NCBI RefSeq assembly: GCF_013122565.1 | Contig: NZ_CP053258.1 | Origin: Escherichia coli | Lineage (GTDB): Bacteria; Pseudomonadota; Gammaproteobacteria; Enterobacterales; Enterobacteriaceae | Length of the DNA: 64,000 nucleotides | Strand: one strand, 5' to 3' | Part shown: positions 35,629 through 41,329 of the stretch, one piece after another | Layout of the letters: each line of letters starts with the position of its first letter | Numbering within the stretch: the stretch's first letter is position 1 | Notes under the pieces: generated by a model | The model's input: only the letters and a program-made list of their open reading frames with translations | Database searches by the model: none | Told to the model about the DNA's origin: nothing | Made by a program: the position numbers and the translations under genes

Positions 35629-35927
35629 GTAGAGATCCAATATTTAAGGGCACGGTTTTTGCAACCGTGTTCTTGTTTGGCCTTTCCTTATAGCCGGTCA
35701 GTGCATTCACCACCACAAGCAGATAATAACTTTATCTGTATTTCTTTATATGATGTGAGCATATTCAGGAAAAATGACCTTTCCTGAGGTACAGTTGCTC
35801 GCTCAAAACCTTTGATTACTGCGGATAAAGTCATCTACTATTGTTTAACACATTCACGCGCTGCATGTATGTTCGGAAAATGTGCACGCTAAGATAATTA
35901 AACAAAATTGTGGTTACAGAGGTATCA

Positions 35928-37181
35928 GTGAGTCACTGGGCTACATTCAAACAAACAGCAACAAATTTATGGGTGACCCTACGGCACGACATGCTCGCGC
36001 TGGCCGTCTTTTTAAATGGATTGCTTATTTTTAAAACAATCTATGGTATGTCGGTCAATTTGCTTGATATTTTCCATATTAAAGCATTTTCAGAGCTGGA
36101 TCTCTCCTTGCTGGCAAACGCCCCACTATTTATGCTCGGCGTATTTCTTGTCCTGAACTCCATTGGCTTACTGTTCCGGGCAAAGCTCGCATGGGCAATC
36201 AGTATCATTTTGTTGTTGATAGCGCTAATTTACACCCTGCATTTTTATCCGTGGCTGAAATTCAGTATTGGATTTTGCATTTTTACGCTGGTGTTTTTGC
36301 TGATACTGCGCAAAGACTTCTCCCACAGTAGCGCCGCAGCCGGGACAATTTTCGCATTTATTAGTTTCACGACGTTACTGTTTTACTCCACCTACGGTGC
36401 GCTTTATTTAAGCGAAGGTTTTAATCCGCGAATAGAAAGTTTGATGACCGCGTTCTATTTTTCAATAGAAACCATGTCAACCGTCGGCTATGGCGATATT
36501 GTCCCTGTTTCTGAGTCAGCACGATTGTTCACTATTTCGGTCATTATTTCCGGCATTACCGTTTTTGCCACCTCTATGACCTCAATTTTTGGTCCGCTTA
36601 TCCGCGGGGGATTCAACAAACTTGTAAAAGGAAACAATCATACAATGCATCGTAAAGATCATTTTATTGTTTGCGGGCATTCGATTCTCGCCATCAATAC
36701 GATTCTGCAACTGAATCAACGCGGACAAAACGTAACGGTTATCAGCAACTTGCCTGAAGATGATATCAAGCAACTTGAGCAACGCTTAGGCGATAACGCT
36801 GATGTTATCCCCGGTGACAGTAATGACAGTTCAGTATTAAAGAAAGCGGGAATCGATCGTTGCCGGGCCATTCTGGCGCTGAGTGATAACGATGCAGATA
36901 ACGCGTTTGTTGTACTCTCGGCAAAAGATATGAGCAGTGATGTTAAAACAGTTCTCGCCGTCAGTGATAGCAAAAACCTGAATAAGATTAAGATGGTACA
37001 TCCGGATATCATTCTCTCACCGCAACTGTTTGGCAGCGAAATTCTGGCGCGAGTTTTAAATGGTGAAGAGATTAATAATGATATGCTCGTTTCAATGTTG
37101 TTGAACTCCGGTCATGGCATTTTCAGCGATAACGATGAACAAGAAACGAAAGCTGACAGTAAAGAATCGGCGCAAAAATAG
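35928..37181 (+). CDS. kch: Six-TM K+ channel homologue with cytoplasmic RCK domain
   Basis: GTG start giving (M)SHWATFKQT... (417 aa); selectivity filter TVGYGD in TMSTVGYGDIVP; C-terminal Rossmann-type RCK domain (HFIVCGHS...). Confidence 0.9.
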   Translation: MSHWATFKQTATNLWVTLRHDMLALAVFLNGLLIFKTIYGMSVNLLDIFHIKAFSELDLSLLANAPLFMLGVFLVLNSIGLLFRAKLAWAISIILLLIALIYTLHFYPWLKFSIGFCIFTLVFLLILRKDFSHSSAAAGTIFAFISFTTLLFYSTYGALYLSEGFNPRIESLMTAFYFSIETMSTVGYGDIVPVSESARLFTISVIISGITVFATSMTSIFGPLIRGGFNKLVKGNNHTMHRKDHFIVCGHSILAINTILQLNQRGQNVTVISNLPEDDIKQLEQRLGDNADVIPGDSNDSSVLKKAGIDRCRAILALSDNDADNAFVVLSAKDMSSDVKTVLAVSDSKNLNKIKMVHPDIILSPQLFGSEILARVLNGEEINNDMLVSMLLNSGHGIFSDNDEQETKADSKESAQK

Positions 37182-37551: not shown

Positions 37552-39376
<1,825 letters not shown>

Positions 39377-39387
39377 CGCTTGCAATC

Positions 39388-39413
39388 GGATGTGACGCAG
39401 CTGCGTCACATCC
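39388..39413. terminator. Perfect 26-bp palindrome between convergent yciU and the channel ORF
   Basis: ggatgtgacgcag / ctgcgtcacatcc, exact reverse complements; starts 12 nt after the yciU stop and contains the TGA stop of the minus-strand channel ORF; no T-run on either side, so terminator function is inferred. Confidence 0.5.
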
Positions 39414-40275
39414 GCTCTTCATTTTCCACATCTACCTTTTCCCTCCCCAGTTCATTGCCACAAATACGACAATACTTCGCATCCTGTGCATGATTTTGGG
39501 TATTGCATTTAGGACAACAGAGAAGTTTTTTAGTCTGTTCAAGTTCGCTGGTGAGTTGCGCAGTAATAATCCCCGTCGGAATTGCAATGACTGAGTAGCC
39601 AATTAAGATTAATACTGAGGCCACCATCCTTCCTGCCTCTGTATGCGGCGTAATATCCCCATATCCAACGGTAGTCACAGTCACTATCGCCCAGTAAACC
39701 GCTGTACCCAACGAGTTAAATCCGTTTGATGCGCCTTCTATAGCGTACATTAACGCCCCAGCGACGATCATCACAATTGCAATAAATGCATAAAAAAGAA
39801 TCAACTGATGTCGGGCATTTTTTATCGCCCGCCATAAACTGTTTAAGGCAGGCATAAAGCGAAGCAGGCGCAAAATTCGCAACGCGCGAATAGCTCTCAT
39901 CGCTCGCCAGGCAAATAAATAAGTAAAACCAATTTCAGGCCATAGCCACATAACATACAGCGGCAAAATGGTGGTCAGATCGATAATTCCCCAAAAGCTA
40001 AAAACATAACTTACCGGATTCGGCCAGCTTAATATCCGCAGGAAATACTCGATGGTGAAAATTAAGGTAAAGAAGAGTTCCACCCAGACAAAGATATGCC
40101 ATTCGTCGTAGGTTAACTGAAATTGCGATCCAATACCGGATTCTATGAAAACAACGCCAACACTTAACAATGCGAGAAAACCAAACAGCGCCTCGCATCG
40201 TCTACCGGTTTTTGTATGCCGATCAAAAAGAAAATGATAAAACCGCTGACGATAGCCTGAAAGTTGTCCTGTCAC
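39406..40275 (-). CDS. Kv-type voltage-gated K+ channel homologue (6 TM, charged S4, TVGYGD filter) with C-terminal Cys4 zinc-ribbon tail
   Basis: 289 aa; GTG start 5 nt after SD GGGAGG; S4 segment RAMRAIRALRILRLLRF with Arg at every third position; acidic countercharges in S2 and S3; pore AIVTVTTVGYGDITP; tail CCPKC...CRIC; not remembered at this position in K-12. Confidence 0.8.
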   Translation of the reverse strand: MTGQLSGYRQRFYHFLFDRHTKTGRRCEALFGFLALLSVGVVFIESGIGSQFQLTYDEWHIFVWVELFFTLIFTIEYFLRILSWPNPVSYVFSFWGIIDLTTILPLYVMWLWPEIGFTYLFAWRAMRAIRALRILRLLRFMPALNSLWRAIKNARHQLILFYAFIAIVMIVAGALMYAIEGASNGFNSLGTAVYWAIVTVTTVGYGDITPHTEAGRMVASVLILIGYSVIAIPTGIITAQLTSELEQTKKLLCCPKCNTQNHAQDAKYCRICGNELGREKVDVENEERM

Positions 40276-40286
40276 CTGCGCCTCCC

Positions 40287-40317
40287 ATGAAAAAGGGCCG
40301 GCAATTGACCAGCCCTT
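40287..40317 (-). terminator. Intrinsic terminator after oppF
   Basis: Minus-strand hairpin AAGGGCTGG-TCAATTG-CCGGCCCTT followed by TTTTT, 8 nt after the oppF stop and directly abutting the SD of the channel ORF. Confidence 0.6.
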
Positions 40318-40324
40318 AACCGCT

Positions 40325-41329
40325 TTATAACGGATCGACTTTCAGGCAAGAAACGGCGTGTCTGAAACTCCCCTCCAGCACAGGACGTGTTTTGGCACAC
40401 TCCGGACCGGCAATCGGGCAACGGGTACGGAAAACACAACCGGAAGGCGGGTTGATCGGCGACGGTAATTCCCCTTCCAGTAACTGGATGGTTTTGTTCT
40501 TCTCCAGATCCGGATCAGGTATGGGGACTGCCGACATCAATGCCCGGGTGTAAGGATGTAGTGGATTGTGGTAGACCTCATCATAGGTCCCCAGTTCTAC
40601 CGCATGGCCGAGATACATCACTAACACACGATCGGAAATGTGTTTTACCACGGCCAGGTCGTGAGCGATAAAAATTAATGACAATCCCATCTCACGTTGC
40701 AACTGCTGGAGCAGGTTGACCACCTGCGCCTGAATTGACACGTCCAGCGCCGACACCGGCTCATCACAGATAATCAGCTTCGGTTCAAGAATAAGAGCAC
40801 GAGCAATCCCGATACGCTGGCACTGCCCACCGGAAAATTCATGCGGATAGCGGTTAATCAGGTTAGGCAATAACCCGACTTTCAGCATCATCGCCTTCAC
40901 GCGCTCGCGAACTTCCTGGCGTGACATTTTCGGATGATAGGTACGCAGCGGTTCAGCGATAATCTCACCGATGGTCATACGCGGGTTTAGTGATGCTAAC
41001 GGATCCTGGAAAATCATCTGAATATCACTGCGAACGGCACGCCATTCATCGGGCTTCATGCCCAGCAACTCTTTACCTAACCAAGCAACATGACCGTCGG
41101 TCGCCTTGACCAAACCGATGATGGCGCGAGCAAAGGTGGACTTACCGCATCCCGATTCCCCTACCACACCTAATGTTTCCCCTTCATACAGGCGAAGAGT
41201 GACACCATCGACGGCTTTGAGCGTTTTCGGCGGTTGCCAGAACCACTGCTTGCCATCTTTGATTTCAAAGTGCACTTTTAGATCGGCGATTTCGAGGAGG
41301 ACTTTTCTTCCTTCGGTTACAGCATTCAT
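40325..41329 (-). CDS. oppF: Oligopeptide ABC transporter ATP-binding protein
   Basis: 334 aa; Walker A GESGCGKST; ABC signature and C-terminal oligopeptide-type extension. Confidence 0.95.
   Translation of the reverse strand: MNAVTEGRKVLLEIADLKVHFEIKDGKQWFWQPPKTLKAVDGVTLRLYEGETLGVVGESGCGKSTFARAIIGLVKATDGHVAWLGKELLGMKPDEWRAVRSDIQMIFQDPLASLNPRMTIGEIIAEPLRTYHPKMSRQEVRERVKAMMLKVGLLPNLINRYPHEFSGGQCQRIGIARALILEPKLIICDEPVSALDVSIQAQVVNLLQQLQREMGLSLIFIAHDLAVVKHISDRVLVMYLGHAVELGTYDEVYHNPLHPYTRALMSAVPIPDPDLEKNKTIQLLEGELPSPINPPSGCVFRTRCPIAGPECAKTRPVLEGSFRHAVSCLKVDPL

Follow-up and report, generated by a model that had tools for sequence, protein, structure and literature searches.

We analysed a window of 64,000 nucleotides (nt) from Escherichia coli (contig NZ_CP053258.1 of assembly GCF_013122565.1), in which the oligopeptide permease operon oppABCDF is followed on the same strand by a gene for a voltage-gated potassium channel-like (Kv-like) protein. 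The subject here is the short junction between oppF and the channel gene, where a hairpin with the features of an intrinsic terminator stands immediately before the ribosome binding site of the channel gene. Transcripts that slip past the oppF terminator are the most likely source of the channel protein, which would then be made in small amounts. All coordinates are positions in the window, and the junction is read on the minus strand, where it is composed of the following features.

40325..41329, minus strand: oppF, the last gene of oppABCDF, encoding 334 amino acids (aa)
40329-40324, minus strand: TATAAA, a -10-like hexamer formed by the last oppF Leu codon, the TAA stop, and the next base
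40327-40325, minus strand: TAA, the stop codon of oppF
Between the oppF TAA and the stem, minus strand: the spacer AGCGGTT, 7 nt from TAA to AAGGG
40317-40293, minus strand: the oppF intrinsic-terminator hairpin, assigned from its fold, from compensatory changes in 28 orthologs, and from its retention in channel-less E. coli
40317-40309, 40308-40302, and 40301-40293, minus strand: the 5' arm AAGGGCTGG, the loop TCAATTG, and the 3' arm CCGGCCCTT of this hairpin
40294-40287, minus strand: TTTTTCAT, the T-rich tail (U-tract) of the terminator, with 6 T in 8 nt
40294-40290, minus strand: the T-run TTTTT, two T of which are common to stem and run
40289-40287, minus strand: CAT, the 3 nt separating the T-run from the Shine-Dalgarno (SD) sequence
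40286-40281, minus strand: GGGAGG, the SD sequence of the channel gene, with GAGG in all orthologs
40280-40276, minus strand: CGCAG, the 5-nt spacer from the SD sequence to the start codon
40275-40273, minus strand: GTG, the start codon of the channel gene, GTG in 40 of 40 lineage representatives
40275..39406, minus strand: the gene of the Kv-like K+ channel with six transmembrane segments (289 aa), assigned from domain, motif, and substitution-rate evidence

The OppF protein encoded here is identical to that of ordinary E. coli, at a DNA identity of 97.9% for the gene. The GTG at 40275 is the earliest possible start of the channel open reading frame (ORF), and the same start was chosen by the Prokaryotic Genome Annotation Pipeline (PGAP) in strain PT62. 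The predicted protein belongs to the voltage-gated channel superfamily by its S4 helix RAMRAIRALRILRLLR, with an Arg at every third position (RxxRxxRxxRxxR), and by its TVGYGD selectivity filter, and its C-terminus carries a CxxC...CxxC zinc ribbon. It matches the Pfam families Ion_trans (PF00520; 9.5e-32) and PF07885 (4.9e-18), and its best relatives of known structure are the eukaryotic Kv4, Kv1, and Kv2 channels, at about 1e-23. It stays below the cut-offs of both NCBIfam K+ channel equivalog models that it matched, including the E. coli-type voltage-gated model NF007828/PRK10537. The window also contains kch, a different gene on the far side of cls and yciU.

The hairpin between the two genes has a predicted folding energy of -17.4 kcal/mol, compared with -7.6 +/- 2.4 kcal/mol for shuffled sequences (z = -4.0), and 0.15% of the shuffles fold equally well. 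Its core stem of 7 bp, which extends to 9-10 bp, and its loop of 5-7 nt lie within the GC-rich stem-loop definition of an intrinsic terminator (stem of at least 5 bp, loop of 3-8 nt), and the U-rich tract TTTTTCAT follows directly 3' of the stem. A simple consensus terminator scan of the window does not list the hairpin, because the maximal stem absorbs two T of the run; this is a limitation of the scan and leaves the reality of the hairpin unaffected. The core motif occurs once in the window, which rules out a repeated element of the repetitive extragenic palindromic (REP) kind, and an Rfam search of the gap gave no family match.

The order of hairpin, TTTTT, CAT, GGGAGG, 5-nt spacer, and GTG, as given in a preliminary description of this DNA, is correct to the base. 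The same description saw no sigma70 -35/-10 pair in between, and this holds as well, with 3 nt from the T-run to the SD sequence and an empty promoter scan there. The consensus promoter scan of the minus strand from 41329 to 40275 likewise found no sigma70-like site with 9 of 12 matches. An element that had gone unmentioned is the -10-like TATAAA at 40329-40324, which overlaps the oppF stop codon and is taken up below.

The channel gene is widespread in the Enterobacteriaceae and keeps a constant synteny, with oppD, oppF, and the channel gene in a row and with yciU and cls on the opposite strand. This arrangement is found in Escherichia albertii, Escherichia sp. E1130, Salmonella, Citrobacter, Enterobacter, and Klebsiella aerogenes, and likewise in Raoultella, Kluyvera, Cronobacter, Buttiauxella, Pseudescherichia, and Superficieibacter. 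Loci were sampled by a scan of genome contigs (at least 8 enterobacterial loci), by look-ups of exact proteins, and by a DNA-pattern scan of metagenomes keyed on the last oppF codons, which added about 100 further oppF ends with and without the channel gene. The statistics of the junction module were taken from 40 lineage representatives with less than 95% mutual identity.

In these representatives, the order of stop codon, hairpin, T-rich tail, GAGG, and GTG is always the same. The gap between oppF and the channel gene measures 44-52 nt, the stem begins 0-9 nt after the stop codon (median 4; 7 in the window), and a T-rich tail follows the hairpin, whose folding energy is about -18 kcal/mol. 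From GAGG to the start codon there are 5-8 nt, and the start codon is GTG in 40/40. The distance from the end of the stem to GAGG is 7-12 nt in nearly all representatives (0-12 nt as measured, the low values, including that of the window, being folds that pulled bases of the T-run into the stem), too little to accommodate a promoter.

The stem is conserved in structure rather than in sequence, as expected for an intrinsic terminator. In an alignment of 28 orthologs, 97.6% of the cells are paired and 4 of the 9 base pairs have changed on both sides, with alternative arm pairs such as GGGCTGAC/GTCAGCCC, GGGCTGGC/GCCAGCCC, and GGCCGGC/GCTGGCC. None of 500 shuffles reached the observed score, and controls in which the arms were slid gave 32-49% pairing. 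Synonymous divergence of the channel gene is saturated between genera (proportion of synonymous differences, pS = 0.77 against Salmonella) and already between the window and E. albertii (synonymous substitutions per site, dS = 1.7), and the conservation of the module therefore reflects selection and not recent common ancestry. Judged from these comparisons, the layout of the junction is not due to chance. Two more distant relatives are looser, the loci L108 and L149 having about 75-115 nt between the oppF terminator and the channel gene, which is enough space for a promoter; in L149, the likely channel start is an ATG preceded by GGAGG.

Most E. coli do not have the channel gene. Among 5,426 complete E. 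coli genomes, the flanks of the locus were matched in 5,422, with the channel gene in 3 and without it in 5,419. The three carriers, PT62, LP5-1, and ET201, come from pigeons and a frog and are all 99.9% identical over the compared 1.15-kb region (39300-40450). The ordinary E. coli junction reads ...TAAACACAATAAGGGCTGACAGTTGTCAGCCCTTTTTCACGCCGAAAGCGATTA (yciU stop), in which the homologous hairpin and TTTTTCA are intact directly before yciU. The deletion extends from right after the T-run to the inside of the 3' hairpin of the channel gene, and reading the two sequences side by side reveals a short TCA microhomology at the joint. Since channel-less E. coli keeps the hairpin, it belongs to oppF and presumably terminates transcription there even where no channel gene follows. 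On both sides, in oppF and in yciU, the sequence of the window is E. coli-like throughout, so this lineage appears to have kept the channel gene rather than imported it; the gene looks ancestral and was lost from nearly all E. coli.

This distribution, with 5,419 of the 5,422 region-matching genomes lacking the gene, could also mean that the channel gene is effectively silent in this strain, a decaying remnant behind an efficient terminator and heading for deletion. The degraded state of the stop-codon hexamer and of both oppF-internal -10 boxes described below, together with a stop-loss mutation that adds 6 codons to the ORF, points in the same direction. We nevertheless consider silence highly improbable, because the ORF is intact and holds all residues that are invariant in the family, because the SD sequence, its spacing, and the start codon are intact, and because the ratio of nonsynonymous to synonymous substitution rates (dN/dS) is low, at 0.06-0.11 overall (Escherichia sp. 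E1130, 0.11; E. albertii, 0.08). At the level of sequence comparison, these ratios show purifying selection on the channel gene, from which we argue that it is expressed and used.

Transcription data for an orthologous junction come from Salmonella. In S. Typhimurium 4/74, the channel gene ortholog SL1672/STM1741 has a primary transcription start site (TSS) at 1792737 and a secondary TSS at 1792708 (PMC4643027 S1 Table). Relative to the last base of oppF (1792476-1793480, minus strand), these starts are 261 and 232 nt upstream, within the gene, and a third oppF-internal TSS lies at 1793232 (PMC4643027). An RNase E study took 1792375-1792737 as the 5' untranslated region (UTR) of the ortholog (PMC5222698). 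The preliminary description had named a TSS within the oppF-channel gap as an observation that would speak against it; in Salmonella, the one relative with data, the table for strain 4/74 lists no TSS in this gap (PMC4643027 S1 Table). The channel ortholog is absent from a second Salmonella TSS list, and the supplementary TSS/3'-end tables searched for K. pneumoniae, E. coli, and E. coli Term-seq have no oppF entry.

The amounts of RNA are also informative. Over 17 growth conditions (data from PMC6333337), Salmonella channel mRNA amounts to 0.29 times oppF mRNA, with a range of 0.20-0.52, and the two are correlated on a log scale (Pearson r = 0.91). In the RNase E data set (PMC5222698), the ratio of channel to oppF mRNA is 0.02-0.16. 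The Salmonella oppF mRNA is itself about 3.4 times as abundant as oppD mRNA, and up to about 15 times in the RNase E data set, so extra transcripts arise inside oppF.

Promoters in the 3' third of oppF might accordingly be the main source of channel mRNA, with the opp promoters contributing little. The Salmonella starts at -261 and -232 from the end of oppF and the excess of oppF over oppD mRNA are what one would expect in that case. The corresponding hexamers in the window are the following.

40594..40599, minus strand: TAGAAC, the weakened counterpart of the Salmonella primary-TSS -10 box TAGAAT, with the TSS-equivalent at 40586
40565..40570, minus strand: CACAAT, the weakened counterpart of the Salmonella secondary-TSS -10 box CATAAT, with the TSS-equivalent at 40557

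Both boxes have thus changed in this strain (TAGAAT to TAGAAC and CATAAT to CACAAT), the promoter scan of oppF in the window is empty, and the key synonymous bases of the Salmonella boxes are not specifically conserved in channel-bearing lineages, which makes read-through from the opp promoters the more general route. Moreover, a transcript begun inside oppF has the hairpin ahead of it as well; read-through is then required on both views, and the explanation amounts to a variant of the read-through model. That internal promoters are the main source seems to us fairly unlikely.

Some observations on the Salmonella locus stand apart from this question. An abundant RNA reaching from inside oppF to the oppF terminator may exist there (the window equivalent would be about 40325-40600), for which we found no name; with three TSS within oppF, this putative oppF 3' RNA resembles the 3'-end small RNAs that have their own promoter. 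The annotation of SL1344_1672/STM1741 in strains SL1344 and LT2 is 783 nt long and starts 54 nt downstream of the conserved, GAGG-preceded GTG, whereas the conserved Salmonella ORF has 837 nt and 278 aa (locus L095, 3075-3911). In the same locus, from Salmonella enterica GCA_025552235.1, oppD and oppF are replaced by one 508-aa OppD-OppF fusion ORF with two ABC_tran domains (L095, 1501-3027). Separate genes of 337 and 334 aa would be expected, and an in-frame deletion has apparently joined the two ATPase genes.

The hexamer at the oppF stop codon shows a different kind of conservation. A perfect TATAAT is present there in 38 of 44 channel-bearing clusters, compared with 3 of 25 channel-less ones. 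The last oppF codons of channel-bearing lineages read (C/T)TA TAA T, where the first base flips between C and T and the motif stays intact. The last Leu codon ends in A in 40 of the 44 clusters, whereas the share is only 9.3% among the remaining Leu codons of these 140 codons, and further synonymous positions in the last ten codons (GTT, GTA, and GAC) are conserved specifically in channel-bearing lineages. In half of the lineages, a C stands at -13, giving CTATAAT, a form typical of sigma-S and sigma-70 -10 boxes. The three Escherichia versions have one defect each (TATAAA in the window, TATAAC, and TGTAAT), and channel-less E. coli reads CTTTAAA. Of the two marks of a sigma70 -10 box, an A in the second and a T in the sixth position, the TATAAA of the window lacks the T.

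The pattern raises the possibility of a dedicated channel promoter, with the stop-codon hexamer as its -10 box and a start some 7 nt further on, at the foot of the 5' arm or within it, so that the channel mRNA would begin with a shortened or 5'-terminal stem-loop. The association of TATAAT with the channel gene, the A bias of the Leu codon, the motif remaining intact despite the C/T flip, the C at -13, and the CTTTAAA of channel-less E. coli all fit such a promoter. Its -35 region would however be poor (TTTCCT or TTCCTG, with 2-3 of 6 matches), and its transcript would retain the 7-bp GC stem and the U-tract and should terminate as well. The hexamer is defective in all three Escherichia lineages that keep the channel gene, without the critical T at -7 in the window, and yet the gene is under purifying selection. 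No primary 5' end about 7 nt downstream of the hexamer appears in the Salmonella TSS table, although very short terminated transcripts would escape such libraries. In all, we regard a dedicated promoter as distinctly unlikely.

In a broader formulation, the channel-linked TATAAT would be a dedicated control element of the channel gene, being either the -10 box of a self-terminating promoter or a sigma70-dependent pause site. As a pause site, it would hold RNA polymerase until the oppF ribosome reaches the stop codon and blocks the hairpin, and channel synthesis would then be gated by oppF translation instead of arising from a passive leak. We think that such an element is unlikely, if slightly less so than the promoter by itself. 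A signal at the RNA level could be a further alternative for the conservation of TATAAT.

We also considered long-range pairing across the junction. An RNAalifold consensus predicts an outer helix between CCCGY of oppF and RYGAGG of the SD region, which would mask the SD sequence; it is 94% paired with no pair changed on both sides, the advantage of cognate over non-cognate partners in swaps is just 0.8 kcal/mol, and the pairing register varies between species. In the window, the last oppF codons and the channel start region form a predicted duplex of -22.9 kcal/mol (z = -3.7). Its two strands lie on either side of the terminator, and the GTG start would pair with UAU from the oppF stop region. 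Part of this duplex is a perfect complementarity between CTGAAAGT (oppF codons, 40345-40338) and ACTTTCAG (channel codons 4-6, 40264-40257). The duplex recurs in part in Escherichia sp. E1130 but not in other genera, and it lies outside the consensus fold.

Taken together, we find it rather likely that the hairpin and the T-run act as a partial Rho-independent terminator of oppABCDF, and that opp transcription carries the channel gene along as an attenuated distal passenger. The T-run would be the end point of most transcripts, whether begun at the opp promoters or, possibly, at weak starts within oppF. The minority passing the terminator would at once carry a strong SD sequence (GGGAGG with 5-nt spacing) and a weak GTG, and channel output would be low and tied to opp transcription. 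The preliminary description had made expression of the channel gene dependent on read-through from oppABCDF or on an oppF-internal promoter, and this proposal is supported by the geometry of the gap, by the Salmonella TSS and mRNA data, and by the purifying selection. For this strain, read-through is inferred.

The leak may be aided by translation of oppF. When RNA polymerase has reached the T-run, part of the 5' arm would lie under a ribosome that is terminating at the oppF stop codon, and leakiness is probably helped by this stop-to-stem geometry, with 7 nt here and an ortholog median of 4. As in a ribosome-coupled attenuator, the oppF stop codon lies within the ribosome footprint of the 5' arm (7 nt; median 4, range 0-9), and no promoter of the channel gene itself follows the terminator (3 nt from T-run to SD sequence; no TSS listed in the Salmonella gap). 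In the case of tR2, a terminator placed a few bp past a stop codon was almost fully repressed by the translating ribosome, and full efficiency was reached only beyond about 30 bp (PMC4824070). No metabolic sensor for read-through is evident at the junction, and the Salmonella ratio of channel to oppF mRNA varies only between 0.20 and 0.52 over the 17 conditions.

Several observations weigh against this partial-terminator explanation. Five U followed by CAU behind a stem of -17 kcal/mol make a reasonably good terminator, and read-through could be very low. Salmonella mRNA drops to 0.02-0.5 times across the terminator site, a figure in which read-through and mRNA stability are not separable, and the rank correlation between channel and oppF mRNA over the 17 conditions is weak (Spearman 0.42, not significant). 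The conservation of TATAAT around the oppF stop in other genera suggests a further element outside the model. Finally, in the metagenome contigs L131 and L208, 150-330 bp are inserted between oppF and the channel gene, and the module of hairpin, T-run, GAGG, and GTG still stands directly 5' of the channel gene. For this reason, the hairpin may have a role in the channel mRNA too, for instance in stabilising its 5' end. The same two contigs contain two or three copies of a GGGCTGG...CCAGCCC hairpin, where the oppF-side copy has lost its T-run and the channel-side copy keeps it.

Further features of the channel gene and its surroundings were observed. The strain has two K+ channel genes, kch (35910-37181, plus strand) and the Kv-like gene (39406-40275, minus strand), which flank cls and yciU. 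The Salmonella gene table keeps the Kv-like gene and lists no kch between tonB/yciI and cls; ordinary E. coli has the reverse pattern. The stop-loss mutation mentioned above is a single-nucleotide polymorphism at 39426 (minus-strand G, T in PT62) that turns TAA into GAA. The reading frame then continues through 6 more codons (ENEERM) before it meets a TGA within the 3' hairpin, whereas PT62 and its relatives end in ...KVDV* at 283 aa. The repeat at this end of the gene is the following.

39387..39414: CGGATGTGACGC-AGCT-GCGTCACATCCG, an inverted repeat with perfectly matched 12-bp arms, located where the channel gene and yciU converge and overlapping the stop codon of the former

This repeat has a T-rich tail on the yciU side only, and its 3' arm persists as a remnant in channel-less E. 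coli. Within the channel coding region, at 39555-39669 (minus strand), there is a sub-threshold Rfam match to K_chan_RES, a eukaryotic Kv RNA-editing signal (23.4 bits compared with a gathering score of 51; E = 0.59), which may just reflect coding similarity to the Kv genes of that family.

To our knowledge, almost no physiology is known for bacterial Kv-like channels, and the manner and timing of their expression are part of this gap. The junction described here is that of an enterobacterial Kv-like channel gene hard-wired behind an oligopeptide permease terminator, with an invariant GTG, a layout which predicts that the channel is expressed very weakly and in step with opp transcription. Channel expression could be raised or abolished through simple handles, namely the hairpin, the stop codon position, and the GTG. 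The deletion exactly at the terminator in nearly all E. coli explains why work on E. coli K-12 never met the channel gene, and the conserved GTG corrects the start codon in the SL1344/LT2 coordinates behind the Salmonella data sets. A partial terminator between neighbouring genes is a well-known kind of operon architecture, and the regulatory principle is not new; some added interest comes from the stop-codon TATAAT that accompanies the channel gene and from the disappearance of this gene from nearly all E. coli.

The closest known systems are the rph-pyrE attenuator and the pyrBI leader, where an upstream stop codon lies few nt before an intrinsic terminator, the ribosome at the stop codon interferes with hairpin formation, and the downstream gene needs read-through. 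The oppF junction is alike in the few nt from stop codon to terminator and in the predicted dependence of the downstream channel gene on read-through. In the pyrE case, read-through is tuned by UTP-sensitive pausing of RNA polymerase, whereas the oppF/channel locus has no evident sensor and its upstream ORF is a full-length transporter gene ending a five-gene operon. A second group consists of operons with a partial terminator, such as rpsU-T1-dnaG-rpoD and the rplL-rpoB attenuator, in which a Rho-independent terminator between co-directional genes lowers expression of the distal gene, dnaG being also weakly translated. The oppF terminator likewise stands between co-directional genes; here, however, the SD sequence of the channel gene is strong and its GTG weak, tail and SD sequence are 3 nt apart, and no functional link of the channel to the operon is obvious.

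The same operon and the same place are used in Vibrio cholerae by OppZ, a 52-nt RNase E product from the oppF 3' UTR whose seed pairs with the oppB ribosome-binding site (PMC7398697), so that in both cases RNA between the oppF stop codon and terminator would be put to a second purpose. The present junction differs in having 7 nt between stop codon and stem and no complementarity to opp start regions above that of shuffled sequences. An OppZ-like small RNA was rejected, since the complementarity of the oppF tail to the oppA, oppB, oppC, oppD, and oppF start regions is at shuffled level (z = 0.1 to 1.1), with an oppB start duplex of -10.6 kcal/mol compared with -11.1 +/- 2.8 kcal/mol for shuffles. 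The nearest counterpart is STM1741/SL1344_1672 of Salmonella. It differs in its length of 278 aa and in oppF-internal -10 boxes that are better than those of the window, but it is an ortholog in the same synteny, and its junction has the same module, composed of TATAAT, the hairpin, CTTTTAGGT, GAGG, TTACC, and GTG.

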